A stretch of 32,000 nucleotides of DNA from positions 660,001-692,000 of the forward strand of contig FP565575.1 of NCBI GenBank assembly GCA_000091165.1. The letters run 5' to 3'. The first letter of the stretch is position 1. Each line of letters begins with the position of its first letter. A program made the translations under genes and the position numbers. The DNA comes from Candidatus Methylomirabilis oxygeniifera (GTDB taxonomy: Bacteria > Methylomirabilota > Methylomirabilia > Methylomirabilales > Methylomirabilaceae). This document shows, piece by piece, positions 1 to 32,000 of the stretch. Below the pieces are notes generated by a model, which worked only from the letters and a program-made list of their open reading frames with translations, was not told the origin of the DNA and searched no databases.

Positions 1-3000
1 TGGCCGTATCCCCCGGCGAGCTGGACCGGGTTCACCCGCGTGCGGGTCAGGCTGTTGTGGCCACCGGCCCGCCGTCCGCGAAGCTGTGACTTCGGCACGT
101 AGATCGTCCGTTCGACCGCGTGATAATACAGGCAGGTGCCGGACTGGACACGGGAGCTGACATTGGCCCGGGTGACCACCACGCCGTTGTCGTTGTAGAC
201 CTCTACCCAGTCGTTATCCTTGAGGCCCACGCGGGCGGCGTCTTTATCGTTGATCCAGATCGGATCCATGCCCCGCGACAAGGTGAGCATGCGGTGATTA
301 TCTTTGTAGGTGGAGTGGATGTTCCACTTGCCGTGGGGCGTAATGTAGTTCAGGAGCAGCGCGCGTTCATCCTGTCCGCTTTCGGTGATGTCATGGATCA
401 GGACCGGGTCGAGTTTTGGCTTGTAGGTCGGCAGGTTCTCGCCGAAGTCGATGAAATAGGGGTGATCAAGATACAGATGCTGGCGGCCGGTCAGCGTGCG
501 CCAGGGCACAAGCCGCTCCACCATCATCGTCCAGGCGGAGTAGGCGCGTCCGTCGTTGGTCATCCCGCTCCAGCAGGGAGAGATCAGCGTGCGCCTGGGC
601 TGCCGTTTCAGATCGCCGAAGTTCAGCCGCAGGCTGCGGTGGCCTTCGGCCATGTCCGCAAGCTCCACCCCGACCAGTTCCCCTTTGGCCTTGAAGCCTT
701 CGTAGCAGATTTCGCCGTTGGTTTCCGGCGACAGGTGCAGGATCAGGTTGGCGGCATCCAGCGCCGTTTCGAGCGAGGGGTACTTCTGCCCGCCCCATGA
801 GACCGTCCGCTTGTGGCGGGGGTCCGGAGATCCTCCCTCTGGGTACTCCAGCAGTTCGTCGTAGAATTTCCCGATGGGAATGGGGCCCCAATTGTGGCCG
901 GTCAGCCCGTCCTCGCGCACCTTCCGCCCGAACGAGATGAATTTCTGATAGAGCTTCGAGTAATCGCGTTCGACGATCTTCAGATGGGGAAAATTGCGAC
1001 CGGGTTCGAGCGGATCGTTCTGACCCTTCCAGTCCACGACCTCCCGCTGAGCCATCTCGTCCGGGCAATTGGCGCTGAGCGGGGCGGCGACCAGGTCCTT
1101 CACGGGACCGTCAAATGCATACCCGGCCATCTCCGAGACTCGCTTGGCCAACGCCTTGAAGATGTCGAAATCACTCCTGGCCTCCCAGGGCGGATCGACG
1201 GCCTTCCCGAGGTTGTGAATGAACGAGTGCAGGTCGGTCGTGTTCAGGTCGTCTTTCTCGTACCAGAAGGCGGTGGGAAGGACGATGTCGGAATAGACGG
1301 CCGAGGTATCCATGCGGAAGTTGATGTCCACCACCAGGTCCATCTTGCCTTCCGGGGCCTTCCCTGTCGCCTTGACGTCCTTGGCGGTTCCATTCACCCG
1401 TTCCTGGGCGATCAGGTTGTGATGGGTGCCCAGGTAGTGGCGCAGAAAGAACTCGTGACCCTTGGCGCTGGATTGAATGGCGTTTCCACGCCAGATCAGC
1501 CAGACCCTCGGCCAGTTCTCCGGAGCATCCGGGTTCTCGACGGAGAGTTCGAGCGTGCCCGTCCTGATCGCGTCGAGTACGTATTGCACGATCTCCTCCG
1601 CACTCTTTGCGCCGGCCTGCTCCGCCTCACGAATGACCTCGATCGGATTCCTGTTGAACTGCGGGTAAAACGGCATCCAGCCAAGGCGAACGGAGCGGGC
1701 CACATGATCTGCGGCATGCCCCTTTGCCCACTTGACGTCATTCGGCAGCGGGGCGTATTCCGTAAACTCCCCCTCGTACCGCCACTGATCGCTCATAATG
1801 TAATGCCACAAGGGGGTCTGCTGGAGGCGCGGGGGTTTCAACCAGTCGTTCGCGAAGGCGACAGGTTTCCATGCTGCGGCCAGTGTCAGTTTCTCCTGTC
1901 CGACGTAATGGTTGAGTCCCCCGCCGTTCACGCCGCAGCAGCCGCACAGGATCAGCGCGGTGGACGGCCCACGGTAGACAAGGTTGTTGTTGTACCAGTG
2001 GTTGGCGCTGGCGCCGATGATCACCATCGATTTGCCGCGGGTCTTCTCGGCGTTGCCGGCGAACTCTCGGGCGAAGCGGATGATCGTCTCTCGCCCGATC
2101 CCGGTGATGGGCTCCTGCCAGGCGGGCGTGTAAGGCACGGTGTCGTCGTAACTCGTGGGGTAATCGCCGGGGAGCCCGCGCGAGACGCCATAATGCGCGA
2201 ACAGCAGGTCGTAGACGGTGGCCACCGGCATCGGGCCGTCCTTTGTGGGCACATGGCGCACGGGCACCCCGCGCAACAGATACCGCTTCCCGGCAAAATC
2301 GTAGATCTTGACCTGCATCACCTCATCGCACTGATTGAGGAAACTGAGCTGCGGGTCGATCCGGGAGTCGTCGAGCGAATCCTCCAGCTTGAGGTTCCAT
2401 CTGCCTTTCCTGCTGCCCCAGTGGTGACCGACAGCGCCCTTCGGACTGCGCAACTCGCCCGAAAGGCTGTCCTGAATAAGAAATTTCCAGGCATTGTGTT
2501 CTTCGCCGCTGTAACGCTCGATTTCCCCCGCAGTCAGCAGGCGGCCGGGTTTGACGCTTCCATCCGATGCCGTGTCCAGCTTGACGAGAAACGGACCGTC
2601 TGAATAGCGCGTCAGGTAATCGATGAAGTAGTCGATCGTCCGGTCGGCGTGAAACTCTTTGAGGATCACGTGGTTGACAGCCATCCACATGGCGTTGTCC
2701 TCGCCGGCCTTCACAGGGATCCACCAGTCGGAGTATTTCGCGACCTGGTTGAAGTCCGGGGCCACCACGACGAACTTGGCCCCTTCGTAGCGGCCCTCGG
2801 AGATAAAATGGACATCGGGCGTGCGGGTCATGTTCAGGTTGGCCCCCACCGACACGATGAACTTCGAGTTGTACCAATCCGCGCTTTCGCAGACGTCGGT
2901 TTGATCGCCCCAGGTCTCCGGGAACTGGTTGGGCAGATCCGCGTACCAGTCGTAAAAGCTCATGCTGGCGCCGCCGAAGAGCTGGGTGAATCGTGAACCG

Positions 3001-3554
3001 GCGGCATACGACAGATACGACATGGCAGGAATGGGCGAGAAGCTGAACAGCCGGTCCGGTCCGTATTTCTTCGCGGTATACAGGCAGGCGGCCGCCACGA
3101 TCTCCAACGCCTCGTCCCACGACGCACGCCGGAATCCGCCCTTGCCGCGCGCCCGTTGATACCGTTTGCGTTTGGATTCGTCTTCGACGATAGACCGCCA
3201 GGCTTCAACCGGATTCTCATGCTGCTGCTTCGCCTCCCTCCAGAAATCGAGCAGCGGGCCGCGGATATACGGGTATTTCACCCGGATGGGACTGTACACA
3301 TACCAGGAGGCGGAGATACCGCGCTGACATCCGCGAGGTTCGTACGGGGGCAGCTTGTCCTCGAGCATGGGGTAGTCGGTCTGCTGCATCTCCCATACGA
3401 TAATCCCATCCTTGACGTACACCTCCCAGGAACATCCGCCGGTGCAGTTGACACCGTGGGTGCTGCGCACGATCCGGTCGTACTGCCAACGGTTCCGGTA
3501 GAAATCCTCCCACTCGCGGCGCTCGGGCTTGAACAGGTCCTGGATCCAACCCAT
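1..3554 (-). CDS. narG: Respiratory nitrate reductase / nitrite oxidoreductase alpha subunit (NarG/NxrA-type Mo-bisMGD enzyme). The first 1184 codons are present; the 3' end lies beyond the window start.
   Basis: Not in the ORF track because it runs off the edge. Hand translation of the minus strand from ATG 3554 gives [50 protein letters not shown] (H-x3-C-x3-C FS0 cluster motif), [16 protein letters not shown] (Mo-ligand Asp region), [25 protein letters not shown] and [13 protein letters not shown]. It is colinear with E. coli NarG as I remember it. No listed minus-strand ORF in 1-3554 shares this frame, which fits one uninterrupted ORF. No twin-arginine signal, so it is the cytoplasmic type. 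Confidence 0.93.
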
Positions 3555-4819
3555 CAGGACACCCCTCCTTGATTGCTGTAGGACCGTTCATACATGGTTC
3601 GGCGCACATCCCGACCCCGATTCCTCCATATTCCCTGAATCATCAACAGGAAGACCACGGCCCCGACGGACCCGATGCCGGCAAGCTGATAGATCTGGTT
3701 GGTGGCCCGACCGATGCCCGTAGTGAAGAAGGCCAACAGGTGACGCTTTTCCTCATCCGTCAGCGTTTTCTTGGTGTAGATCGGTTTCATGGGCGCCACG
3801 TGCTCTGTCCACGTGATCATCCCATCACCGAATTTGTGATAGGCGCCCGTCAGGTCCGGTCCCAGGACCCCGCCTCCGAGCGCCCCTATGCCGCTGACGG
3901 AGTGGCACGCCCGGCACGAAGCCCCGCCGCCGGCGAGTCTCTCGGCGCCGGTAAACAGGCTCTTCCCCTTGTCCGGGTCCCCCCTCATCAGCCCTGGTAT
4001 CTCAGGAGGGGTCCATGTATTCGCCTGTTCGCGCTGCTCCGGCGTGGAGAGGGACAGCACATAGTGAACCAGATCCCATGCGTCCTTACCGACCGCCCAG
4101 TCGCTCATCGGCATCGGTGTGCCGGGCATGCCCGCGAGTATCCTCCGATAGAGTGTCTCCGGGTCCGGGTTCCCCTTAAAGACCCCCTCGGTCAGGTCGC
4201 GCGGATGCGTGGGCACACCGTCTTCATCCAACTGCTCCTGTACGCCATCCCCTTTGCCGGTTGGCCCGTGGCAGGAGGCGCAGCCGTCGGCGTACAGCTC
4301 CTTCGCACGCTTGGCGGCGGCGGGATCGTACGGGGGCTCCAGCGGAACAGCGATGACCCCTTCTCCGGTGCCGGCGCCAGAGGCGGGCGCTTGCTGCGAC
4401 TTGACGGTGATCGGCGTTTCGGCGAACGACTTGACATACTGGACCAGGGCCCAGCGCTGTTGTTCCGGCAGGTGTTTCCACGAGGGCATCGCGGTTCCGG
4501 GTAGCCCGCGTGTAATCGCGTTGAACAGGTCCTCATCGGTAGGCAGGCGTTCCCACGTGGAGACCATGCGGTATTTCGCGGTGACGAAGTTGCGCGGTTT
4601 GATCTTCAGCAGGTCGGCGGCTATACCTTTGCCGCGGCCGTCCGCTCCGTGGCAGGCGGCGCACTCTGCCGTATAGATGGCCTTCCCTGTTGCAAGGAGT
4701 GTCGGCGAGGGCGGAGGAGTGATGGCGGCTGCTGCGGTCAGAGAGAAGAGGGTAGCCAGCGCCGCGAGCGAAAGGCTTACCTGTATCCCGATAAGAATCC
4801 GGTATCGTGGACCCACCAT
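3554..4819 (-). CDS. Membrane-anchored tri-heme c-type cytochrome
   Basis: 421-aa ORF with three CXXCH motifs (CAACH, CASCH, CRACH). The first two are followed by GTAMPSW / GTPMPMS contexts typical of a Met distal ligand. Hydrophobic N-terminus ([18 protein letters not shown]) and a C-terminal hydrophobic helix ([17 protein letters not shown]). Its TGA stop shares one nucleotide with the narG ATG (TGATG, 3552-3556). Confidence 0.85.
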
Positions 4820-8041: not shown

Positions 8042-9889
8042 CCCATCTTCCGCAGTTCGAGCATGGCACACCAACAACATCACACAGTTATAACTCAGAT
8101 CAGGCCGTTTTCTGCACTACATCGTCAACGACCTTGGGCCGGTTGGGCAGCAAAATATTCATCCACTGGAGCAGCACCCTCAGAGCTTGTGAAGGGGTGG
8201 AGACCACTCGCAGCCTGAGGGTTTTGTCGTTCGCTGGCAGCAGGATATCCAAGGATCGCACCTCCCGCATCTCCTCCAGGAGCTGTCTCGGCGCAGCGCC
8301 GAGTCCTGGAGCCTTCATCCACTGCTGCAGGCTTCGCCACATGGCCAGGGCCAGAAAACAGACCAGGATATGGGCCCGGGTCCGGTCCTGTCGCTGATGG
8401 TAGATCGGCCGCATGCCGAGATCCGACTTTTCGATCCGGAAGACGTCTTCCACTTCGGTCAAGCGGTTTCCGTGACTGTCACGGTGAAGAGCGAGGCGGC
8501 CCGGCTGTTTCTCTCCAGCAGCCGTCGGATCCGACGTTCGGCCTTCTGCCGATCCCGGAGTCGGCCCTGCTCGGCCTGGGCTTTCAGGGTGTGCAGTTCG
8601 GCCTCCAGACGGGCCAGAAATCGGTCGAGGATGGCCGCCTCCTTGGCCTTCCGACCGTCGGACCGGCACAGCACAAAGATGTCCGCTCCGCCGTCAGGTG
8701 ACGCGCACGTTTTGACCTCGACGCCGGGCTGCACCTCCGCCCAGTCGTGGGCCAGCAGTTCGTGGTCAAACTTTCTGAGCATCGACTTCGGAGTGCCGAC
8801 GAGATAACGTGCGCCACGCTGCCGCAGACACGCCAGGTTCTCTTCGCTGACCATCCCCCGGTCCATGACCCAGATGCGCTCGGTCTGACCGTACTTATGC
8901 TCCATGGTCAGTGCCATGTCTTTGGTCGTGGTGACATCGGGACGATTGCCGTCGAAGACACTTCAAAGGCCAGAGGCAAGCCATCCCGGCTCGTCACCAG
9001 GCCGATACAGACCTGGGGGCAATCCGGGCGACTGTCGCGGCTGTAGCCCCTCCTGGCCTGCGGATTACCGCGCGCCAGACCTTCCCAGTAGGCGGAGGTG
9101 ATATCGTAAAACAGAAAGTCGAAGGTGGCCCCAAAGAGTGTGCCGTAGCGCTCCTGCAGGTGTTGGCACAGGGCGTCTTTATATGGCAACAGGAGACATC
9201 CAGGGCGCGGTAGAGGCGATCGTCGTTGACCCTGTCCGTGGGCACGCCCAGCAGATCCTCACACGCGGTCTTGGCATACCAGGAGTCGGCGATCTGCAGT
9301 TCCGACGATGGGGCGCAGAATCAGGCAATGGTGAGGAGGCAGGCCATGACGGACCACGGGATCGCTTCCCTGCCTTCGGCCATCTGGGCGTGACACCAGG
9401 TGGCCAAGCCGAGCCGGTGCCACAGGAGCAGCGCCAGATACACATCGCCGAAGTGTCGCAGCCGCTCGACGCTGACACGCGTAAGATCGATAGTCGCCCA
9501 TGCCGGCGGCTCTGCTACCTGTTCAAAGAGACTGCGGTGGGGGCTTCCCTGTAAGCAGGCGGCCGATGGCGTCCCGGCCGATCCGCTCCTCTCGGTCCAG
9601 TCCCGGCAGTTCCCCGATCGTGGCGACGATGCGCTGGCGAGGGCCTCGTGCCGTGCGAACGGATTCCATCAGCGACCAGTAGCCGTACGTTTCGCCGTCC
9701 ACGTGCTTGTCATGTCGCCGCAGGTACATAACCGACGTTATGCCCGATCTCTGCGCCCACTGCAAAAGGCTTTTCTGCACTACACGTGGTGTTCGGCATC
9801 CGGCGCTTCCGGATCCCGGAGTGACGCGGTCCGGCTGATCGATTGACTATCTTTTCGGTGCAGATCGAGCCGTTGCTGCGGAAGATGGG
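8042..9889 (-). mobile_element. IS1634-family (IS4 superfamily) insertion sequence, non-autonomous because the transposase is decayed
   Basis: Perfect 14-bp terminal inverted repeats: CCCATCTTCCGCAG at 8042-8055 and CTGCGGAAGATGGG at 9876-9889. They bracket 1848 bp containing the transposase fragments. No flanking target-site duplication detected (ctag vs ttaa). Confidence 0.75.
8100..9729 (-). pseudogene. IS1634-family transposase, disrupted
   Basis: Fragments in different frames:
- 9729-9523: MYLRRHDKHVDGETYGYWSLMESVRTARGPRQRIVATIGEL.
- A shifted frame gives FEQVAEPP...LLTIA, then an in-frame TGA, then FCAPSSELQIADSWY...DDRLYRALD.
- 9189-8908: LPYKDALCQHLQERYG...YDITSAYWEG...RGYSRDSRPDCPQV.
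- 8917-8459: DMALTMEHKYGQTERIWVMDRGM.
- 8669-8100: LTEVEDVFRIEKSDLGMRPIYHQRQDRTRAHILVCFLA.
That is at least four frameshifts, one nonsense codon and a probable internal deletion. Confidence 0.8.
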
Positions 9890-9901: not shown

Positions 9902-10288
9902 TCACCATTCCGTCCGCACGGGATACTGCGTGATGGCTGGATCGGGCGTCAGAATGGTCAGGCCGTGGGCGATGGCCTGGCAGATGAGCATCCGGTCGAA
10001 GGGGTCTTTGTGGTAATCGGGCAGCCTGGCAAGCTGCAGTACGGCAGCTTCCTCGAGCGACAGCGATCTGATTTCGTGGAGTGTGCGCTGTCTTGAGATG
10101 AATTGTCGGGGTGGCTCCGGTAACGGCAGACGGCCCAGGCGGTGCTTGATGACGATCTCCCAGGCGGACACAGCGCTCAGGTAGACCTCGTTGTCCGGGT
10201 CCGAAAAGAACTGACGCGCACTGGACGACAGATCGGGGCTATCGGCGATCAGCCACACGAACGTGCAGGTGTCGAGCAGCAGGTTCAC
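9902..10288 (-). CDS. vapC: PIN-domain ribonuclease toxin (VapC family)
   Basis: 128 aa. MNLLLDTCTFVWL (first acidic PIN residue), SAVSAWEIVIK and DPFDRMLICQAIAHGLTILTPD. The GTG start overlaps the antitoxin stop (GTGA). Confidence 0.85.
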   Translation of the reverse strand: MNLLLDTCTFVWLIADSPDLSSSARQFFSDPDNEVYLSAVSAWEIVIKHRLGRLPLPEPPRQFISRQRTLHEIRSLSLEEAAVLQLARLPDYHKDPFDRMLICQAIAHGLTILTPDPAITQYPVRTEW

Positions 10289-10701: not shown

Positions 10702-11323
10702 GAATTTACCGGAAACAATAACTGTTTCGATGACCGCCTCCACACGCTGCAGCAGGACCATCTCGGTCTGATCACTGAAGCCTATTGCTCTCTCTATCCG
10801 GAGAAAAAAAACACCGAAAAGGTCTGCTGCTTTTTCGACGAGATTCAGGCCGTTCCCGGATGGGAGCGCTTCGTCGACCGCGTGATGCGCACGGAACAAT
10901 GCGAGGTCTATCTCACGGGCTCGTCGGCCAAGATGCTCTCGAAGGAGATTGCCACGCAGATGCGCGGGCGGGCGCTCTCATGGGAGCTGTTTCCGTTCTC
11001 GTTCAGGGAATTCCTGGACTACAAAGCCATCGAGAGTGAGGGCGCGCTGTTGACGAAGAAGCGGTTCCTCGTTTAGAAGGCGTTCGAGGCGTACGGGAGA
11101 CCGGTGGCTTCCCCGAGGTCGTCGGCCTTGGCCGGAACCTTCGGATCAAGACGCACCAGGAATACTTTCATACTATAGTGAAGCGATGACTGAACTCAAG
11201 CTCACAGCAGTAACCATCGTGACCCGGAGCGGGCGTGAGCGAATCGAGGTGGACGGTGGAACCATCGAGGTCGTTCCGGCATGGCGATTCCTCCTCGACC
11301 TACCGGAATCAACAATCTAACCA
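10702..11323 (+). pseudogene. AAA-type ATPase with DUF4143 domain, decayed
   Basis: The frame open from 10702 gives FDDRLHTLQQ...CCFFDEIQAVPGWERFVDRVMRTEQCEVYLTGSSAKMLSKEIATQMRGRALSWELFPFSFREFL (Walker B and sensor region). The Walker A N-terminus is missing. There is an in-frame TAG at 11074-11076, then a frameshift into TGGFPEVVGLGRNLRIKTHQEYFHTIVKR. A large internal deletion follows. The C-terminal tail is a 45-codon ORF at 11186-11323 (..GRERIEVDGGTIEVVPAWRFLL). Confidence 0.6.
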
Positions 11324-12442: not shown

Positions 12443-13150
12443 TTACATATTCCGTTCGTCGTGAGCCTGGTCGAAGGACTCACCACGAACGGAATATAGG
12501 GATTTCTGCGATACTACGCTGGCCCGCACTCGCAGACCTTCCAGTATGACCCAGAAGAGTTCACCGCGCGGCAGGTCACCTGTATCAGTATCGAACGCTG
12601 CGATCTGGCGATGATCGACACCAAGAGCAGAGCGCTCGAAGTCGTTCAAGCGCTGAGAGCATAGTTCGCCAGAGTGCAGCCGATCACCGTCCAACAGGTG
12701 TCTCAGGTTACAGCCCCATGTCGGCCGGATAGTCATGGCTGATGTCCCATGTTGCCACTTTCCCAGGTCCTGGCACATCCCGTGCAATTGCATCCGCGCC
12801 TGAGAGGGTCGGCCGACAGACACGACAGCCTGACGGGGAGGTACCGCGTGGCGCATGTCAAGACGGATGAAGTTGTTGCGAAGATGATCGAGGTAGGAGT
12901 TGCAAAAGGACAGCTTCCGATGACTCTTGGCAACGTCGTCGTCGGCTTTCTGTTTACCGGCCTTCCGCTCTACATCACCCATCATCGTAAGAATCAGGCG
13001 CGTTGAACTGCTGAGTGAAGCCGCACCGGCACCTCGCCTCTGCGCAAGGTTCGGGACAGCCCACCCGTAAACGGCGCACAGCAAGTCGGATTGCGTCGAA
13101 CTCGGGCTGCGGCGGATCTGAGATGATCGCTCGCTGCCGTTCCTCCGCAC
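12443..13150 (-). other. Doubtful 235-codon ORF; non-coding or a decayed gene relic
   Basis: Arg/Ser-rich with a GTG start. Its 3' end is encoded by the 12447-12497 hairpin. There are weak resemblances to an IS3-type integrase core (DL..AVYGWAV ... DRLHSGELCSQRLNDFERS vs YN..RLHSALGY.SP..FE), but these are not convincing. Confidence 0.2.
12447..12497. terminator. Long hairpin (19-bp stem with one mismatch, 13-nt loop) downstream of the lipoprotein gene
   Basis: ATATTCCGTTCGTCGTGAG cctggtcgaagga CTCACCACGAACGGAATAT. Starts 26 nt after stop 12421. There is no clear U-tract, so its terminator function is uncertain. Confidence 0.4.
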
Positions 13151-13156
13151 AGCAGT

Positions 13157-14032
13157 TCAGGACCTCCGTTTCTCTCTGGTGGAGGGCGTGATCACCATGG
13201 ACATGAACAACAGCGCAAGCAGCCCCAGCAGGGCTGGAGTGAAAAGAATCAAAAACCCTGGTCCCATTCGCCATTTTCCCGTAATCGGATCGTAGTCAAA
13301 GCAGCGAAAAATGGTGTTGTCTCCGGGGAGGGGATATGAGGGAATAAATTCCCCCTGCATTTCTCTCAATACCTCTGCCAGTCTGGAGGTTGCCTGAAAC
13401 CCTGCGAGTATTCTCAGGAGATACCCATTCCGATCAATGCCGGCGACCATCGCCGGATGATCGTATCCTTTGATCTCTTCGCGCCATTCAATGTGAAACC
13501 CCATGCTTTGGGTTAGTGCTGTGATCTCTTTCGTTACGCCAAATAGCCAGCGTTCCGGTTGGGGTAAGTCCAGGATACTCGCCACTCTCGTCATATCCTC
13601 TACAGTATCCAGAGGATCAAGACTGAGGACCAGCACGCGATATCCATCCACTCGAATGTTTTGCAGTTCGTTCCGAAGATACTGGAGATACGGGTAGCAA
13701 ATAGTCGGACATCGGGTATACACCATCGTGAGAAGAACGGGATGTGTCGTATAGATCTCAGAAAGGTGAATCTCCTTCTGAGCAGTCTGTACAACGATAT
13801 CCGGGATCTTGCGATAGACGTATCGATTCTCATCGGGCAATGCTGGTTGCGCAAAGGCGGACGCTGCCGGCAAAAGTATAATGGTGCAGGTGATGAACGC
13901 CGCCGAATACAGTCGACAGCGTGCTACGACGGAACAACGCGGAGCCTTCGGCAGGATAATAGTTGAGAGCAAGGCAAGCTGTCGAATAAGGTCGTTGACT
14001 CGAGGATTCACGATGACTTGGCAAGAGACCAT
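13157..14032 (-). CDS. SCO1/SenC-family thioredoxin-fold copper chaperone with a C-terminal TM anchor
   Basis: 291 aa. LTMVYTRCPTICYPYL (CxxxC Cu site) and a downstream His in GYDHPAMVAGIDRNG. C-terminal FRCFDYDPITGKWR followed by a TM helix, as in many SCO-family proteins. The start codon is uncertain (ATG 14032, or an internal GTG or TTG). Confidence 0.8.
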   Translation of the reverse strand: MVSCQVIVNPRVNDLIRQLALLSTIILPKAPRCSVVARCRLYSAAFITCTIILLPAASAFAQPALPDENRYVYRKIPDIVVQTAQKEIHLSEIYTTHPVLLTMVYTRCPTICYPYLQYLRNELQNIRVDGYRVLVLSLDPLDTVEDMTRVASILDLPQPERWLFGVTKEITALTQSMGFHIEWREEIKGYDHPAMVAGIDRNGYLLRILAGFQATSRLAEVLREMQGEFIPSYPLPGDNTIFRCFDYDPITGKWRMGPGFLILFTPALLGLLALLFMSMVITPSTREKRRS

Positions 14033-14157
14033 CTCTTGATGCTTGACAGATACATTGAAATGCTCATGCCCCCTTATTCGTTAATACACCCCGCAATACA
14101 GATTCAGCCCGGTATCTTTGAATTACGCGTCCTCTCCGCCTTGGGAACCATCACGCC

Positions 14158-14793
14158 TTATGGGGCTGTACGAACAAACGAAGCGGCGCTGATTGTTCCC
14201 TCAGTAAAGCCAAGCCGGAAGTCGTAACGACGGCCTCCGAATGGAACTTGCAAGGCATCCCAATTCCGGAGAGTCCGTTGTTCCCTCGGCCTTCCTTCAG
14301 GAGTGGACTCTTTGACCGTATTACACGAGTCATCAACGATCGAAATAACCTTGAATATCTTTCCGTCTGAGACAAATCGAAATACAAGCGCGCCAATGGG
14401 TTGACCTGAATCGGTGAACTCAACGCCAATGGCTTCTTCCTTATTCTGGTCTCGCCCGATAAGCACAACATCTCTGGAGCCTTCCTCCAGGATCCGCACT
14501 CTGCCGTTTGGAACATTGGAGAAATATGCCGCAAGGCAGCCCTGTGCCCCTGGTGATTGTGCATCCATGAGAGTAGAAGGTTGGTTGGCGGGCTGCGCCG
14601 ATGGCGCAGTCACAGCAGGCCCTCTTGATGCCGACGTCGCAGCGGGGATCGGACGTGCATGTTTACGGTCGAACACTCCAAATGAATAAACAATGCTAAG
14701 CAGTCCGATGATAGCCGTTATGACTGTCGCTATCCCTGTCAGGATTCCCTGCGTGGAACTCCAGAAGGATTTTTTGTCGCTCATGTTGTTCAT
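14158..14793 (-). CDS. Hypothetical single-pass membrane protein
   Basis: 211 aa. N-terminal TM helix (ILTGIATVITAIIGLLSIVYSFGVF), a Pro/Ala/Ser-rich linker and a ~125-aa globular domain with two Cys. Lies between HCO subunit I and SCO on the same strand. Confidence 0.6.
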   Translation of the reverse strand: MNNMSDKKSFWSSTQGILTGIATVITAIIGLLSIVYSFGVFDRKHARPIPAATSASRGPAVTAPSAQPANQPSTLMDAQSPGAQGCLAAYFSNVPNGRVRILEEGSRDVVLIGRDQNKEEAIGVEFTDSGQPIGALVFRFVSDGKIFKVISIVDDSCNTVKESTPEGRPREQRTLRNWDALQVPFGGRRYDFRLGFTEGTISAASFVRTAP

Positions 14794-14917
14794 GGCTTGC
14801 CCCCAATGATATTGGCTTGACTAACCTCTGTCATGCGCAGATGGCTATTGTCTCCCTGGATTACGACGGCAAACAAACATAAATCGGACATCTCACCGAG
14901 TGGCTGAGCATAACCAC

Positions 14918-16342
14918 TCAACGGGAAAAGGCTTTGGCGCACCTCTGTGATGCGCCGAAAAAAAAGACGATGATCCCTAGCAAATACAACAGGGCGAAAA
15001 TCACGGCAGCTTTTGCCAGTGTTGTGCCAAGGGGCAGATCGGGAGGATAGAGATTGAATCTTCTGGGGATGGAGAACGTTCCCGAAAGATAAAACATGCT
15101 TACGAATCCCCAGCCCCCGAATAAGAGCAATGCAAAGACGCTCCTCGAAAGTCCGACAGAGAAGGGTGTTCCGGACACCTTCTCTGCGAACCAGACGACG
15201 AAGGCGAGATTGAAAAAGATCTGACCCAACAAGTTATAGGTATGAAAGTGGGCGGGAACCCACTGGGTGTTGTGCAGGACAAAATTGTTGACAATCGTTG
15301 CATCCAACACGGCCGCTACCCCGCCTATCGCCCAACCGAGCACCCCATAAAAATAGAGGAGAGAGGCCAGATTCCATTTCATCGAGTTTCGGTAGGTATA
15401 GGCGAGCACACTGAAGATCGTGACCACCGCCGCAGGGAGAGGAGCCAGGAACGAGGCGATCTGACCGATAAACTGAAATCCGGTCGGCTGGACAAAATCC
15501 ATGTACAGATGGTGAAAGTAGGCGAACATCACGATAAGAAAGGTCGCATTCCAGGATAATGCCACATACCATGCAGTCTTCCATTTTGCGCGACGGCCGA
15601 ATTCCGGATAGAGCTCGTACAGGACCGCCACCGCCAAATACAGCATCTCATTGACCAGCGTGTGTCCAAAAATAAACGTCAGATTCTTCATCAGGAGCGC
15701 ATCGTTTTTCATCCACCCCAGATGCTCCCCAAAGTACAGGGTTAGCAGGGTCACCCCGGCAAGCAGGCAGATAAAAATACCGATCAGCGTCGCGGTGAGA
15801 ACGACAATGAATGGTGGAACCTCCGGCTCTTTTTTCCCGCGAAGGTAGTGCCAGGCCAAGGCCTGGGATAATGGATATTTCCGCAAGATGCCGATCAGCA
15901 TGGACACGGTCCAGACCAGCCAACCTACCCCCAATACTGCGATGCTGACAAGAAAAAGCGGCGTCGCCCACTCTTCCCATGTTCTGTAAAAGGGAAGCGG
16001 ATAGAGAAAATACCACCCGGCGGCAAACTTCCCGATAAAGGTCGCAATGATCAGTAAGACCACACCGATCACCGTCAGGATATAGGCGACAATGTTTCCG
16101 ACCAACGGTGACCGAGTGTATTTATTCAACAGATAGTCGTTACTGGCCATGCCGATGACAAACCAGGTGCCCGCCATGCCGAGGCCATGGAGGGTGAGGA
16201 ATGAGAAGAAACGGTCCGCCGGCACGGTGATCACGCCTCCCTGGTTGGCACGCATCAAGATGCCGAGAAGGATCAGGATGGGAAAGAGGATAAGGCCGGT
16301 GTAGGTCCATACCGCGGTCATGCGGGAATATGTTTTCTCCAT
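14918..16342 (-). CDS. Heme-copper oxidase superfamily subunit I, B-family-like, lacking the cross-link Tyr (NO-reductase-type candidate)
   Basis: 474 aa, about 12 TM helices. All six canonical His ligands are present: H52 (LTLHG), H227 (IFGHTLVN), H277/H278 (AYFHHLY) and H365/H367 (WVPAHFHT). Asn231 occupies the position of the GHPxVY tyrosine. Confidence 0.9.
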   Translation of the reverse strand: MEKTYSRMTAVWTYTGLILFPILILLGILMRANQGGVITVPADRFFSFLTLHGLGMAGTWFVIGMASNDYLLNKYTRSPLVGNIVAYILTVIGVVLLIIATFIGKFAAGWYFLYPLPFYRTWEEWATPLFLVSIAVLGVGWLVWTVSMLIGILRKYPLSQALAWHYLRGKKEPEVPPFIVVLTATLIGIFICLLAGVTLLTLYFGEHLGWMKNDALLMKNLTFIFGHTLVNEMLYLAVAVLYELYPEFGRRAKWKTAWYVALSWNATFLIVMFAYFHHLYMDFVQPTGFQFIGQIASFLAPLPAAVVTIFSVLAYTYRNSMKWNLASLLYFYGVLGWAIGGVAAVLDATIVNNFVLHNTQWVPAHFHTYNLLGQIFFNLAFVVWFAEKVSGTPFSVGLSRSVFALLLFGGWGFVSMFYLSGTFSIPRRFNLYPPDLPLGTTLAKAAVIFALLYLLGIIVFFFGASQRCAKAFSR

Positions 16343-16354
16343 ATCGTCTTCTCC

Positions 16355-16912
16355 TTACCTGACCTCAAAACTCGTTCGCATAATAAAATGGGCAAGGCCG
16401 CAGTATTCCATGCACAGGACAGTATATATGCCGGGTTTTTCAAACCGAAAACGCAAGCGATTGACATAACCCGGCATCGCCTGAACCTGAGCGATGATGG
16501 TATGTTCCGGGTCGAAGATGCCGAATCCGTGATTCACATCCCGGCTGGTGACGCGGAACTCTACGAGGGCCCCTACGGGCAGAACAGTGCCGCCTGAAGC
16601 TTCGGCGGGAGCCTTTTCCTTGTCGAGCGATTCATCGGACAGGATAAAGGCAAACTGCTGTGCCGTCACGGCGATGATTTTTTCCGGCCGTTCTTGGACA
16701 AACAGCAGATAGGGAGAGCGGGGCAGGGTGAAAAAGAACACCACACCAAGGATGATAGCAAGCGCGAGAAACCAAAGACCCCGGTAGCGATTGACCTGTG
16801 CAGACGCAATGTCGGTCGCGTGTTTTGTGCTGGCAAACACCATCTGAAAGACCAGCACAAGCACGCCGGTCACAACCAGAAAGCTGATCAGAACAAGAAC
16901 CTGCTGCGTCAT
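16355..16912 (-). CDS. Heme-copper oxidase subunit II with a complete CuA centre
   Basis: 185 aa with two N-terminal TM helices. DVNH128GF ... C167MEYC171GLAH175FIM178 matches the canonical H...CxExCGxxHxxM. An AAGGAG-containing 12-nt gap separates it from subunit I. Confidence 0.85.
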   Translation of the reverse strand: MTQQVLVLISFLVVTGVLVLVFQMVFASTKHATDIASAQVNRYRGLWFLALAIILGVVFFFTLPRSPYLLFVQERPEKIIAVTAQQFAFILSDESLDKEKAPAEASGGTVLPVGALVEFRVTSRDVNHGFGIFDPEHTIIAQVQAMPGYVNRLRFRFEKPGIYTVLCMEYCGLAHFIMRTSFEVR

Positions 16913-17299
16913 GCCTGTCTCCTGGCTTGGAGCGAGGTGTCATCGATCGTCAGGTGCAACATACCGTCGGACAAGTCGGTCCTGGCCAGGGTGAGTGCTA
17001 CGTGCTGGTCACAGATTGCGGCGACCCGGCGGCGCTCCCCCTGGTTCCTCGGCCGTGTGCAGGCGGTACGGGGTATCTACACAAAAATGGCGAGGGGAGG
17101 GGCTGGTACGTCGAGGCCACATCTCGCATATACCTGGGGAGGCGATGCCCAATGCCGTCTCGAACTGCTTTGCGGCCATGGTTACCTTTCTTGTTCGGCG
17201 GGGTGAAAACAAAGGCAAGCATATCATAGCCCCATACGATGCAAAAGAGGCAAAATAGGCCCAAACAGGATAAACAGGTAGTAGCCGGTTGAAACGGAA

Positions 17300-18214
17300 T
17301 CAGGGATGATGGGAATCGTGAGGACGGGTGGAGACGCCGAGAAAGGTGAGGAAGGCGTTACAGATCGGTGAGCGTGAGCGGTGGCGGTGAGTGATGAGGT
17401 AGAAAGGTCTGGTCAGCTTGAGACCTGCGATAGGAATGGCGTAGAGTTCGCGGCAGTTGATGTCGCTTGCGACGGCGAGCCGCGAGATGATGGCGATACC
17501 TCCGCCTGCCTTGACCGCTTGCCGGATCGCCTCATTGCTGCCCATCTCCCCGATTATCTTGAAGGCGCCGATCGACAAATTACGACGCTCCAGGGCCCGT
17601 TCCAGCATCTTACGTGTTCCTGATCCGCGCTCCCGAATGAGAAACGGCTGACTCGGCAGTTCCTTTGCCCTGACGCTCTTCCGAGATGCCCATGGGTGTG
17701 CAGGCGGCACGACCAGGACCATCTCGTCTTCGGCAAATGTCTGATACTCGATCCTGCTGTCATCGAATTGTGCGCCTACGGCGCCGATCTCATAGGCGCC
17801 GTCGATCACGGCCTCGATAATCTCCTTTGAGTCTGAGACCTTGAGGACGATCGAGATGTCCGAATAGCGGGCCCTGAATGGTCCGATCAGCGGCGGGAGC
17901 AGATAGCCGCCCGGGATGCTGCTGGCGCCGAGTATCAGTTCTCCCTTCAGCCCTCCCTTGAACTCATCGAGCGCCTGTTGGGCTTCCTGGCGGAGCGTCA
18001 GGATCCGCCTGGCATAGCGATACAGCAAGTTGCCGGCCTTTGTTGGGGTGGCCCGATGTCCGAGGCGATCGAGGAGCCGGATGCCGACGTCCTTCTCGAG
18101 CTTCTTGATGTGGCCGCTGACCGTGGGCTGGGTCAGGTACATCGCGTCGGCCGCCTTCGAGAAGCTCCCCGATTCGACGATTCTGCAGAACAGTTCGAGG
18201 ACGTGGAGATCCAT
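17300..18214 (-). CDS. LysR-family transcriptional regulator
   Basis: Internal ATG 18214 gives MDLHVLELFCRIVESGSFSKAADAMYLTQPTVSGHIKKLEKDVGIRLLDR (HTH) plus a LysR substrate-binding domain. The 44 codons upstream in ORF 17300-18346 overlap the glycosyltransferase and are Arg/Ser-rich. Confidence 0.85.
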   Translation of the reverse strand: MDLHVLELFCRIVESGSFSKAADAMYLTQPTVSGHIKKLEKDVGIRLLDRLGHRATPTKAGNLLYRYARRILTLRQEAQQALDEFKGGLKGELILGASSIPGGYLLPPLIGPFRARYSDISIVLKVSDSKEIIEAVIDGAYEIGAVGAQFDDSRIEYQTFAEDEMVLVVPPAHPWASRKSVRAKELPSQPFLIRERGSGTRKMLERALERRNLSIGAFKIIGEMGSNEAIRQAVKAGGGIAIISRLAVASDINCRELYAIPIAGLKLTRPFYLITHRHRSRSPICNAFLTFLGVSTRPHDSHHP

Positions 18215-29690: not shown

Positions 29691-30692
29691 ATGAAGAAAC
29701 GTAACGCTGTCATCGCCCTGTTACCGTTATTGGCTGTTGCGCTCTTCTTCGGATGGGCCTGCAGTCGATTCAGCCCACCACCCTCCGGCCCTGAAACTCT
29801 TCATGCCCAAGAGACATCTGCTGCACGCGCGGTTGCGCCTCGGCCTCAGTGGACCGGTCCCCCACCGGGCGCCAAATACGTGGGGAGCGATTCCTGTCTG
29901 ACGTGTCATGAGGAGTCGACGCAGCGCTTCCATAAGACCATGATGGGGCGGATCATGTCCGTAAACCCGCGCACTCCCCAAGAGCAGCGAAACTGCGAGT
30001 CATGTCATGGTCCGGGAGGTCCGCACACCGATACGGAGGGCGGCGCCATCGGGACGTTGATGACCTTCAAGAAAGGCGCAGAGCCGGTCGAAGCGCAGAA
30101 TGCCACGTGTGTGAACGGCTGCCACGAAAAGGGCGAGCACACCTTCTGGAGGGGAAGCACCCACGAATCACGGGGGGTGGCGTGCGTATCATGTCACAAG
30201 GTGATGGGGTCGGTGTCCGACCGATACAATCTGACGAAGCCGACCGCGATCGAGGTCTGCTCGCAGTGCCACCAGACCCGACGAGCCCAGCTCCAACGCA
30301 GCTCCCACATGCCGCTGCGCGAGGGAAAGATCAGTTGCAGCGACTGCCACAACCCTCACGGGACTGCGACACAGGCTATGCTTCGCGAAGACTCCGTCAA
30401 TGAGAACTGCTACACGTGTCATGCCGAGAAACGGGGACCGTTTCTGTGGGAGCATGCGCCCGTCATTGAGAGCTGTACGAACTGCCATGAGCCGCACGGC
30501 TCCACCAATGCAAGGCTCCTGAAGGTCAGGATTCCGCGCCTCTGTCAGCAGTGTCACGTCGAGACCCGACACCCGACCAATCCATACGATCCGACAACCG
30601 GATCGAGGTTTGTCGTCAACCGAGGTTGTACCAACTGCCACCAGAAGATCCATGGATCTAACCATCCCTCAGGGTTCGCCTTCACGAACTGA
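29691..30692 (+). CDS. mtrA: Periplasmic decaheme c-type cytochrome, MtrA/DmsE/PioA family
   Basis: 333 aa. Nine CXXCH motifs plus one CX3CH (C140VNGCH). Long colinear matches to Shewanella MtrA as remembered: CSDCHNPHG, CYTCHAEKRGPFLWEHAPV, CHEPHGS, LCQQCH and CTNCHQKIHGSNHPSG. N-terminal signal peptide. Confidence 0.9.
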   Translation: MKKRNAVIALLPLLAVALFFGWACSRFSPPPSGPETLHAQETSAARAVAPRPQWTGPPPGAKYVGSDSCLTCHEESTQRFHKTMMGRIMSVNPRTPQEQRNCESCHGPGGPHTDTEGGAIGTLMTFKKGAEPVEAQNATCVNGCHEKGEHTFWRGSTHESRGVACVSCHKVMGSVSDRYNLTKPTAIEVCSQCHQTRRAQLQRSSHMPLREGKISCSDCHNPHGTATQAMLREDSVNENCYTCHAEKRGPFLWEHAPVIESCTNCHEPHGSTNARLLKVRIPRLCQQCHVETRHPTNPYDPTTGSRFVVNRGCTNCHQKIHGSNHPSGFAFTN

Positions 30693-30727
30693 GGTTTGCG
30701 ATCTGCAGCACACGGAGGAGGTGGGCC

Positions 30728-32000
30728 ATGGGCGCATTGCTTGGAATAAGACGATTTGGTCGCACGCTGCTGCTCGCCTTCGCCCTGCTGTCGGCGGCCG
30801 TCGCCTCAGGTTACGCCGAACAGCCCTCTCCGCAGGAGGCCATCCCTTCTTGGGTCAACTGGCTCAATACCGGGCTGCCCTTTGATTTTGAGCTGACCGG
30901 ATTGGATGTTGAGGGTGGCTATCGCGACATCGACGGCCGTCGGAGTTCGGCCAAGTTCCAGGAGTACCGTGTCCTTGAAGAGAGTCCCTTTTTGGATCAC
31001 CTTCGTCTCTCCCTGGAGACCAAAGATAAAAGGCGCTACATCGACTTCACCGCCATTGACAGCTTTAAGCAGGATCAGAGCTACCTGTTTCGACTGGGGC
31101 AGTACGGCGACTATGATCTGGAGATCTTCTGGGATCAGGTTCCGCATTTGTTGAGTACGACGGGACGGACCCTGTTCTCGACGACGCATAAAGACAGTAC
31201 CTCGTTTTTGACTCTGCCCGCTGGTGTTGCCTCAACAGTCCAGGGCGCGACCCCCGCGACAAGAGCCTCCATGTTGGCCGGTTTTCTTGCGAATGCGGCG
31301 CCGGTCGATCTGTCGTTTCTCACAAGTAAGGCAGGGTTTCGATTCAAGTACGCCTTGAGCGAGTCGCTCGGTATGGGGGTCCGTTACACCTATACGGAGA
31401 AAGACGGGACGATTCCGTTCGGCGCAGGCTTCAGCAGCCCGGGTGGCAACATCGTAGAGCTTCCCGCGCCTCTCTTTCATCGAACCCACCAGGTCGAGGT
31501 GAAAACCGAGTATGCGAAGCCAGGCTGGAATATCGGCCTAGGCTATGCCGCCTCGATCTTCGACCAGGGGATCAAGAATATCGTGTTCGACAATCCGCTC
31601 TCGGCGACCAACAGTCCGACCGCCTCGGCGAGCGGGCGAACGACCATGGACCCGAGTAACCATGCCCATAATGTATTTCTGTCTGGCGGCGTCTCTCTTC
31701 CTTTGCGCACCCGGATCACCGGCAAGTTTTCCTACGGTTGGCGGTTTCAGGACGCGACATTCGTTTCGCACACCATCAATCCGGCCCTGGCCGCCGATCC
31801 TCAGTTGGCTCTCCCCAGACGTGATCTCGACGGCGATATCAGGACGGCTCTGGTAACCGTCAACGCGACGAGCCGCCCGCTTGCCGCTCTGCCGCTGACA
31901 CTCAATGGCGGCTACCGCTTCTATGACTTCGATAACCGATCGTCTGAGATCGAGTTTGCCGCGCATACAGTCCGGGATACGTCGCTCACAGCCGAGACCC
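30728..32000 (+). CDS. mtrB: MtrB/PioB-family decaheme-associated outer-membrane beta-barrel. The first 424 codons are present; the gene continues past the window end.
   Basis: Not in the ORF track because it runs off the edge. GGAGGAGG lies upstream of ATG 30728. Hand translation gives MGALLGIRRFGRTLLLAFALLSAAVASGYAEQ (signal), then GYRDIDGRRSSAKFQEYRVLEESPFLDHLRLSLETKDKRRYIDFTAIDSFKQDQSYLFRLGQYGDYDLEIFWDQVPH, with alternating beta-strand patterns typical of MtrB/PioB. No listed + ORF shares this frame. Confidence 0.85.
   Translation, partial: MGALLGIRRFGRTLLLAFALLSAAVASGYAEQPSPQEAIPSWVNWLNTGLPFDFELTGLDVEGGYRDIDGRRSSAKFQEYRVLEESPFLDHLRLSLETKDKRRYIDFTAIDSFKQDQSYLFRLGQYGDYDLEIFWDQVPHLLSTTGRTLFSTTHKDSTSFLTLPAGVASTVQGATPATRASMLAGFLANAAPVDLSFLTSKAGFRFKYALSESLGMGVRYTYTEKDGTIPFGAGFSSPGGNIVELPAPLFHRTHQVEVKTEYAKPGWNIGLGYAASIFDQGIKNIVFDNPLSATNSPTASASGRTTMDPSNHAHNVFLSGGVSLPLRTRITGKFSYGWRFQDATFVSHTINPALAADPQLALPRRDLDGDIRTALVTVNATSRPLAALPLTLNGGYRFYDFDNRSSEIEFAAHTVRDTSLTAET

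Follow-up and report, generated by a model that had tools for sequence, protein, structure and literature searches.

A 32,000-nt stretch of the genome of Candidatus Methylomirabilis oxygeniifera (M. oxyfera hereafter; contig FP565575.1, positions 660,001 to 692,000, referred to as the window) was analyzed for a cluster of four minus-strand open reading frames (ORFs) that encodes a divergent heme-copper oxidase (HCO) together with a copper chaperone. Read in the direction of transcription, the first gene (16355-16912) specifies a norS-type subunit II of 185 amino acids (aa), which consists of two N-terminal transmembrane (TM) helices and a cupredoxin domain with a complete CuA site (Pfam COX2, E=2.5e-9). 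Only 12 nt separate it from the gene for a norY-type subunit I (14918-16342; 474 aa, 12 TM helices; Pfam COX1, E=1.2e-43, 150 bits), whose score lies far under the NCBIfam cut-offs of CtaD, CyoB and QoxB. These are followed by an orphan gene for a 211-aa protein (14158-14793), which matches no Pfam or NCBIfam family, and by an ORF of 291 aa for a SCO1/SenC-type copper chaperone (13157-14032; Pfam SCO1-SenC, E=9e-7). An initial annotation of the window had singled out this cluster, and the four ORFs, the six subunit I His, the CuA site and the Asn231 codon described below all lie where it had placed them.

The locus is not new to specialists. Subunit I is 100% identical to CBE67864.1, deposited for Ca. 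Methylomirabilis oxyfera as a 'putative cytochrome c oxidase subunit I', and because DAMO_2434 corresponds to CBE69496 and DAMO_1889 to CBE68939, CBE67864 should fall among the locus tags around DAMO_080x. The nitric oxide (NO) reductases (NORs) described for this organism are a qNOR (Damo_1889), a gNOR (Damo_1118-1119) and an sNOR (Damo_0801-0802), the sNOR being 87% and 82% identical to mela_2378-2377 of M. lanthanidiphila (Versantvoort 2018); a second-tier match in our sequence library (P0003), at 87% identity, agrees with the published M. lanthanidiphila figure. The locus is the published sNOR (norSY-senC) cassette of M. oxyfera, which the M. oxyfera literature has mentioned by name at least since 2018, and the initial annotation, which from the letters alone had proposed a CuA-containing, B-family-derived HCO of the sNOR/bNOR kind that lacks the cross-link Tyr and is accompanied by SCO, had arrived at the literature's own name for it. 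To this our data add some small new points, namely the orphan insertion, the Bacteroidota-type origin of the cassette, an HxxxNE motif, a conserved SCO tail and a decayed nitrite channel.

Subunit I carries a full complement of metal ligands, with H52 and H367 as low-spin heme ligands, H365 as the high-spin heme ligand, and H227, H277 and H278 as ligands of the non-heme metal. These six His align with the ligand His of A- and B-type oxidases and are invariant in 59 homologues; both they and the NTQWVPAHFH context pointed out in the initial annotation are present in the sequence. Four residues beyond H227, where O2-reducing HCOs have their His-linked Tyr, lies Asn231 (codon AAT, 15650-15652 on the minus strand; motif GHTLVN). 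In HMMER alignments this Asn stands opposite the cross-link Tyr of A-family oxidases (GHPEVY; Y244 in the bovine-type enzyme), and in a HMMER profile alignment opposite Y237 of the Thermus thermophilus ba3 enzyme (GHPIVY), such that the codon itself as well as the A-type and ba3 alignments bear out the proposed replacement of Tyr by Asn. The alternative Tyr position of the C family, six residues before the HH pair, is occupied by V271, again as the initial annotation had it, and Y275, two residues before HH, is not conserved.

Among 32 homologues of at least 50% identity N231, E232, Y235, Y242, E243 and all six His are invariant. When 27 alphaproteobacterial homologues (~33-35% identity) are added, for a total of 59, N231, Y235, Y242, E243, T308 and R427/R428 are still invariant, whereas E232 is not. 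A phmmer search against 1.84 billion 50%-identity representatives returned only 480 matches, 44 of which (those of at least 440 aa) were aligned. The 34 aligned representatives that keep H227, H365 and H367 and have no Tyr all possess Asn at His+4 (34/34, motif GHxxxN), down to ~30% identity, and most of them also share HHLYMDF. Asn231 is not a chance pattern. In the next tier of relatives, nine aligned representatives have GHPxVY or HHPxVY with the canonical Tyr, one of which (P0196) finds its best PDB match in T. thermophilus ba3 (85 bits versus 67 for A-type). Three (P0186, P0190 and P0267) are missing several canonical His ligands and fit neither the Asn nor the Tyr group, and the P0234 row is a fragment. 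In a neighbor-joining tree the Asn clade is set apart from the Tyr clade, and subunit I falls into a subclade with Methylomirabilis-like sequences and those of Bacteroidota/Ignavibacteriota, of which the HxxxNE motif is the hallmark. The Glu of this motif, E232, which directly follows Asn231, is confined to the subclade; Y235 is found in almost all members of the Asn family.

Other members of the phylum have an enzyme of this general kind that is not the present one. Other NC10/Methylomirabilota genomes, including metagenome-assembled genomes (MAGs) labelled M. oxyfera, carry a different Asn-type HCO (P0128, 502 aa) that is 41% identical to subunit I, and with this second paralogue the phylum therefore contains at least two lineages of Tyr-less CuA-type enzymes.

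The CuA residues of subunit II (H128, C167, E169, C171, H175 and M178) are conserved in 79-80 of 80 homologues, and hydropathy places hydrophobic segments at residues 4-22 and 45-63; ligand positions and hydropathy thus agree with the two TM helices and complete CuA site of the initial annotation. The SCO protein possesses the metal motif C108xxxC112 plus H192, and its hydropathy profile shows one N-terminal and one C-terminal hydrophobic segment, the latter a TM anchor at residues 259-277. Its tail (residues 229-291; 13157-13345, minus strand) reads F-x-P-S-Y-x-L-P, then C244-F-x-Y-D-P-x-T-G-K, and ends with the TM helix. Across 77 homologues from related loci (L001-L080) C108, C112, H192 and C244 are 97-100% conserved, C244 being conserved in 100%. 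The Pfam SCO domain does not cover this tail, and the SCO of Ruegeria pomeroyi is without it.

For a wider look at gene order we scanned one genome per GTDB species, found 527 loci with close relatives of the cassette, and carried out the following analyses on the best 80. These are mostly from Bacteroidota, Ignavibacteriota and Chlorobiota MAGs, and all are at least 49% identical. In 78 of the 80 the genes for subunit II, subunit I and SCO directly follow one another, so the synteny check proposed with the initial annotation uncovered a conserved three-gene unit, of which the 211-aa ORF is not a part. No conserved orf1-type protein was found 3' of the cassette in the related loci. In the Bacteroidota an Rrf2 regulator and a ScdA/RIC di-iron repair protein are located just downstream in 6-7 loci, and a cytochrome c upstream in five. 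No ammonia-oxidizer NorY appeared among the best 80 loci, in two 50%-identity cluster look-ups, or in a search seeded with the R. pomeroyi sequence; the look-ups named NC10, Cytobacillus, Ginsengibacter and Methanomicrobiales, and the R. pomeroyi-seeded search gave only alphaproteobacteria.

The AlphaFold2 model of subunit I, another of the checks put forward at the outset (predicted local distance difference test, pLDDT, 85.7; predicted template modeling score, pTM, 0.89), has the HCO fold (template modeling scores of 0.77-0.85) with 12 long helices. A Foldseek search with it gave template modeling scores of 0.80-0.85 to A-type and 0.74-0.78 to ba3 structures; as a means of discriminating A from B family the fold comparison was rejected, the A-type and ba3 values being too alike. 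Likewise the family profile, when run against solved structures, scored 72 bits with 7DEG, 69 bits with ba3 and 68 bits with human COX1, which puts B-type ahead only marginally. No cNOR or qNOR structure was among the PDB sequence matches of the profile at E<=1e-5.

sNOR has been described as B-family-derived, with a bNOR-like active site and a CuA subunit, its function being only proposed (Murali 2024), and of the features by which it has been defined (Hemp & Gennis 2008; Murali 2024) the following are found here: six His, loss of the Tyr with Asn at His+4, a CuA subunit II, and the residues of the K-channel region. With respect to the last, profile alignment pairs ba3 S309 with A304, Y248 with Y242, T312 with T308, T315 with S311, and T249 with E243. 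sNOR is reported to have a K-channel-like path that lacks the ba3 S309 and has a distinctive Glu instead (Murali 2024), and the aligned residues of subunit I match this description as far as sequence can tell. E243, which does not vary within the Methylomirabilis/Bacteroidota clade, the alphaproteobacterial clade or the Cytobacillus clade, is, we infer, the Glu meant by these authors. Asn in place of Tyr is also seen in both alternative NORs of Bacillus azotoformans (Heylen & Keltjens 2012), which bears out the association of Asn with sNOR/bNOR made in the initial annotation.

Other classes were considered and ruled out. Subunit I is not a gNOR, since H227, H277 and H278 are all present (no His-to-Asp exchange) and CuA is complete, and since the gNOR of M. 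oxyfera is encoded at another locus. An nNOR or a cNOR/qNOR-type site was dismissed because His+4 is Asn and not Glu (E232 being at His+5), and because the low-spin heme ligands are H52/H367, where nNOR has His/Met. The architecture of bNOR was dismissed on the grounds of a 474-aa, 12-helix subunit I, a two-TM subunit II, and no recognized gene for a small third subunit. The GHPxVY signature of ba3-type B-family O2 reductases is replaced by GHTLVN.

With a probability of roughly 70%, we favor the view that the cassette encodes a two-subunit, B-family-derived sNOR, a cytochrome c (or cupredoxin):NO oxidoreductase that was horizontally acquired and acts as a low-flux NO safety valve. What the data show directly is the sequence identity to the published locus, the set of ligands, the exchange of Tyr for Asn, the coherence of the family and the synteny. 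In the scheme we infer for substrate, non-heme metal identity, proton path and physiological role, a periplasmic cytochrome c or cupredoxin would donate electrons to the binuclear CuA of subunit II, from where they would pass to the low-spin heme and on to the binuclear site formed by the high-spin heme and the non-heme metal. In O2 reductases the His-linked Tyr provides the fourth electron for O-O cleavage; with Asn231 in its place no Tyr radical should be needed, and the replacement would make the site suited to the reaction 2 NO + 2 e- + 2 H+ -> N2O + H2O, as in bNOR. For that Asn-type enzyme, from Bacillus azotoformans, NO reduction has been proven and is electrogenic. By analogy, protons would be drawn from the cytoplasm, probably through a modified K-channel (Y242, T308, S311 and the family-specific E243), in which case the reaction would be electrogenic here as well. 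The membrane-anchored SCO, by virtue of its CxxxC...H motif, would metallate CuA. In M. oxyfera, where NirS makes NO and an NO dismutase consumes it, such an enzyme most likely relieves NO at low flux, with traces of nitrous oxide (N2O) as the product. Nitrococcus mobilis, which has no NOR other than sNOR, produces N2O, which is indirect evidence for sNOR activity, and the recurrent links to nitrite channels and NO-stress genes in relatives also favor an NO-related role.

Several points weigh on the other side. No sNOR has been purified or assayed in the literature, where the characterized NOR types are cNOR, qNOR, bNOR and eNOR only, and the co-membership of our protein with ammonia-oxidizer NorY rests on the literature and not on our own tree. 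Two near-invariant Tyr, Y235 (His+8) and Y280 (after HH), appear from the sequence to be near the site. M. oxyfera makes very little N2O and has no N2O reductase (Versantvoort 2018), so that the physiological need for an NO reductase is not obvious. The cassette is situated amid decaying genes, and subunit II is frameshifted in a sister strain, which hints at weak or conditional selection. Lastly, transcripts of the Nitrosomonas europaea sNOR were up 2.7- to 10.8-fold at O2 limitation, and on the strength of this induction and of its B-type affiliation a high-affinity oxidase was argued (Sedlacek 2020).

If that role were carried over to M. oxyfera, the enzyme would be a high-affinity, NO-tolerant terminal O2 reductase that scavenges the NO-dismutase O2 left by methane monooxygenase, with NO reduction as a side reaction. 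The original database entry of the locus as a cytochrome c oxidase would accord with this, as would the residual O2 respiration of M. oxyfera, which has been put down to 'one of the terminal oxidases', and the retention of the K-channel-like Y242, T308 and S311; Y235 and Y280 could in principle serve as non-cross-linked redox residues. We nevertheless regard an O2 reductase as unlikely. The cross-link Tyr is missing in every family member examined, with none at the C-family position, yet all characterized O2-reducing HCOs need it (Murali 2024), and the sole characterized enzyme with an Asn site, bNOR, reduces NO. Moreover, O2 can be reduced in M. oxyfera by a canonical aa3 oxidase (Versantvoort 2018), and the relatives of the cassette are linked to NO-stress genes (Rrf2, ScdA/RIC) and nitrite channels.

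The same heme/non-heme site might instead serve another reaction, for example the dismutation or oxidation of NO or the reduction of N2O. M. oxyfera is the very organism for which unusual NO chemistry by divergent HCOs (the qNOR-like NO dismutase) has been proposed, the invariant E232 beside Asn231 sets the Methylomirabilis/Bacteroidota subclade off from other Asn-type enzymes, and the family is free of biochemical constraint. The complete CuA entry site, however, argues for net reduction and not dismutation; the cassette also occurs widely in ordinary Bacteroidota, which lack intra-aerobic metabolism; and in M. oxyfera the candidates for NO dismutase are different genes with high expression. 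We rate a reaction of this sort as very improbable, and NO reduction by an sNOR remains our preferred account.

As to where the cassette came from, its four genes have a GC content of 51-53% and a GC content at third codon positions (GC3) of 50-67%, versus 59-64% and 68-81% for the flanking genes. The nearest relatives outside the Methylomirabilis-like sequences are from Bacteroidota, at ~55% identity, and an 81% relative labelled Acidobacteria (L001) has only the three-gene cassette in common with the window. Convergent with SCO on the plus strand is a remnant of a formate/nitrite transporter (FNT) gene (12911-13003), a pseudogene made up of the last 31 codons, which was recognized by tblastn with a 179-aa FNT of a sister strain (L082; 87% identity, E=7e-15) and with the FNT of Thermomicrobium roseum (E=5e-6). 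In the sister strain, which still keeps 179 aa (L082 4969-5508), decay is less advanced. Further debris separates the cassette from the narG-type gene at the window start: at 8100-8917 (minus), 9902-10288 (minus) and 10785-11076 (plus) are transposase-like fragments, a PIN toxin/PhdYeFM antitoxin pair and an AAA_14 ATPase fragment. Given the foreign base composition, the distribution of relatives and the flanking debris, the cassette appears to have been acquired horizontally and to lie in a region of local decay.

Selection on the genes was gauged against the ~94% identical sister strain. Subunit I has the lowest ratio of nonsynonymous to synonymous substitution rates (dN/dS), at 0.075, followed by SCO (0.15) and subunit II (0.23); the enzyme genes are under purifying selection, which is strong for subunit I. 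Two assemblies of this one strain (L082 and L083) have an A5 run for the A6 of the window (16681-16686, codons 76-77), a 1-nt deletion which shifts the frame at codon 77 of subunit II, before the CuA domain. Downstream of the frameshift the substitutions in subunit II still look selected (dN/dS 0.19), which points to a lesion of recent date or to an error of assembly; phase variation is a further possibility.

These observations bear on whether the cassette is merely a passenger, horizontally acquired, which Methylomirabilis can do without or is losing, and which has hardly any function today, if any. Such a view would draw on the GC and GC3 values foreign to the flanks, on the Bacteroidota as the nearest outside relatives at ~55% while the paralogue of other NC10 genomes is only 41% identical, on the isolation of the three-gene cassette in L001, on the adjoining FNT, cupin, AAA_14 and transposase fragments and PIN/PhdYeFM pair, on the subunit II frameshift in two sister-strain assemblies, and on the fact that 'Ca. 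M. limnetica' has only qNOR (Versantvoort 2018). Against it, all metal ligands of the window copy are intact, dN/dS is low for subunit I, SCO and subunit II, also past the sister-strain frameshift, norSY of a related Methylomirabilis MAG has been reported as transcribed, and the cassette is kept in both M. oxyfera and M. lanthanidiphila (Versantvoort 2018). We hold the passenger explanation to be improbable and retain that of a functional, acquired sNOR.

The 211-aa gene that interrupts the cassette calls for separate treatment. Its product consists of an N-terminal TM anchor (hydropathy shows one TM segment), a Pro/Ala/Ser linker and a beta-rich C-terminal domain with 2 Cys; its AlphaFold2 model has a pLDDT of 53 and no match to known folds, and no Pfam or NCBIfam family recognizes the protein. 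In its own frame the ORF has a dN/dS of 0.31, compared with 0.8 and 1.7 for out-of-frame readings, which suggests that it is a real gene. It was not found in any of the 80 related genome loci, nor in an 87% relative (L081) or the 81% relative, in which SCO abuts subunit I, and is present in the 96% relatives L082 and L083. Homologues form four clusters among 5.8 billion proteins, from close relatives only. The gene is a later lineage-specific insertion that stands outside the conserved module. The initial annotation had correctly placed a single-TM 211-aa protein and SCO on the same strand after subunit I, but the 211-aa protein as a part of the module did not hold up, given its absence from the 80 loci. 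The norSY-senC-orf1 gene set of ammonia oxidizers mentioned there is matched in part: norS-norY and senC are present, no orf1-type multi-TM protein is encoded, and norY and senC are separated by an unrelated gene.

Light is shed on this junction by L086, a relative at a greater distance. There, subunit I is followed by a homologue of the 211-aa protein, an intact Cupin_5 gene (L086 950-1537) and then SCO. In the window, the first ~25 codons of the SCO ORF (…NDLIRQLALL…; 13958-14032, minus strand) are a remnant of a Cupin_5 (DUF985) gene, and the true start of SCO is therefore probably internal to the ORF. A deletion of ~0.6 kb joined Cupin_5 in frame to the region upstream of SCO. On account of the L086 gene order and of the Cupin_5 remnant, the subunit I-SCO junction is an insertion/deletion hot spot in the M. 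oxyfera lineage.

On a more speculative reading, the Methylomirabilis/Bacteroidota-type enzymes might not be plain sNORs but form a functionally distinct subfamily, distinguished by HxxxN-E (Glu232), a SCO with Cys tail and anchor, and the lack of orf1. We would give this long odds. Were it true, the Glu232 carboxylate could favor Fe over Cu or retune the enzyme, its job in M. oxyfera could be to consume NO-dismutase O2 or nanomolar NO, and the role of a new accessory subunit could fall to the periplasmic 211-aa protein of this lineage.

The remainder of the window provides the following context. Upstream of subunit II is an intergenic region of 387 nt (16913-17299, minus strand), presumed to hold the promoter, which extends to the gene for a 304-aa LysR-family regulator (17300-18214, minus strand; HTH_1 and LysR_substrate domains). 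No TTGAT-N4-ATCAA (FNR/Dnr) box was found in this region at up to 2 mismatches, nor any convincing promoter 5' of subunit II, where no sigma-70-like site was seen and promoter and terminator scans did not rise above chance. With a GC content of 0.60 versus 0.51-0.53 for the cassette, and no linkage to it in L001, the LysR gene is probably part of the flank rather than of the cassette. Its product scores above the cut-off of NF040786 (297 bits), a family named 'selenium metabolism-associated LysR', and LysR-type genes also occur near the R. pomeroyi cluster and one of the related loci (L025).

At the far end of the same strand, running off the window start, is a gene for a narG/nxrA-type nitrate reductase alpha subunit (3-3551; TIGR01580, 1406 bits against a cut-off of 1084). 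Directly upstream of it is a gene for a 421-aa membrane-anchored c-type cytochrome (3554-4819, minus strand) with three CxxCH motifs, two of them in Pfam cytochrome c domains plus a third heme motif, which may exchange electrons with the nitrate reductase or with CuA enzymes. The initial annotation had put the oxidase next to nitrate/nitrite respiration genes. A narG-type gene is indeed in the neighborhood, but it is not adjacent, being 9.6 kb from SCO past transposase, toxin-antitoxin and pseudogene debris and not in an operon with it. The plus-strand ORFs at 120-800 and 813-2603 were rejected as antisense artifacts of narG. A 235-aa minus-strand ORF (12443-13150) was rejected as a candidate orf1, since it consists of the FNT remnant plus unrelated sequence and has no family match. 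Near the other end of the window are plus-strand genes for a DmsE-family decaheme cytochrome (29691-30692; TIGR03508, 268 bits) and, after it, an MtrB/PioB-type outer-membrane protein (30725-31999); in this nitrite-dependent methanotroph the two form a porin-cytochrome module of extracellular electron transfer.

The sNOR-type enzymes are widespread, with the close Bacteroidota-type version alone found in 527 species-level genomes, and the family raises the questions of whether its substrate is NO or O2, whether its metal is Fe or Cu, and whether energy is conserved. Tyr-less relatives are named 'cbb3-type cytochrome c oxidase subunit I' by NCBI PGAP. This name is wrong as to family, the proteins being A/B-like with CuA partners, and probably wrong as to substrate; standard pipelines apply it, and the capacity for NO reduction and N2O production is thereby mislabelled systematically. 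Because NO is a central intermediate in M. oxyfera and almost no N2O is emitted, this organism is an interesting host in which to ask what the enzyme is for.

For comparison, one of the closest published counterparts is the sNOR of ammonia oxidizers (N. europaea NE0683-86), the family to which the literature assigns the M. oxyfera locus. Both have a CuA subunit II, a B-family-derived Tyr-less subunit I and a linked SenC/SCO, and neither has been characterized biochemically. They differ in gene order, which is norS-norY-senC-orf1 in the ammonia oxidizers, whereas M. oxyfera lacks an orf1-type protein and has the orphan between norY and senC, and in that the M. oxyfera SCO has a C-terminal Cys motif and a TM anchor.

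Among the enzymes of Bacillales, bNOR (formerly qCuANOR; Bacillus azotoformans BAZO_06394-06399), the proven electrogenic NOR, is similar in its Asn at His+4, CuA subunit II and linked SenC. In contrast to our cassette it has a subunit I of 568 aa and 13 TM, a subunit II with one TM, a 46-aa third subunit and a 6-TM accessory protein; it is confined to Bacillales and is said not to be closely related to sNOR, i.e. to be convergent. The alternative 'type II' NOR of Bacillaceae (BAZO_04705-04710; Geobacillus GTNG_1517-1520) shares a 12-TM subunit I of ~490 aa, a two-TM subunit II, the Asn and an adjacent SenC (Heylen & Keltjens 2012), and its Cytobacillus member (P0143, 493 aa), in which E243 is retained, belongs to the Asn clade of subunit I. 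The type II enzyme is only 33% identical to subunit I, Ser and not Glu follows the Asn, and a 4-5-TM protein is encoded by the third gene.

Homologous clusters also occur in R. pomeroyi and T. roseum. On the megaplasmid of R. pomeroyi DSS-3 (SPO_RS20760-20740) the order is Rrf2, subunit II, subunit I, SCO, a hypothetical (orf1-like) protein, a formate/nitrite transporter and cytochrome c, and in T. roseum (TRD_RS11245-11260) it is subunit II, subunit I, a formate/nitrite transporter and a CtaG-like protein. In both, subunits II and I are 36-38% identical to ours with the HxxxN motif, and an intact FNT gene is linked to them, as one once was to the M. oxyfera locus; unlike the window, neither has the 211-aa gene, and T. 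roseum is without SCO and without E243. Finally, the structurally characterized B-family oxidases, T. thermophilus ba3 (1EHK/1XME) and the Aquifex aeolicus enzyme (7DEG), have the same fold (template modeling score ~0.77), are the best profile matches and share the K-channel Tyr/Thr positions, and are distinguished by the exchanges of Y237 for N231 and of S309 for A304, by 13 rather than 12 TM in subunit I, by the two TM of the M. oxyfera subunit II, and by an identity of only ~18-20%.

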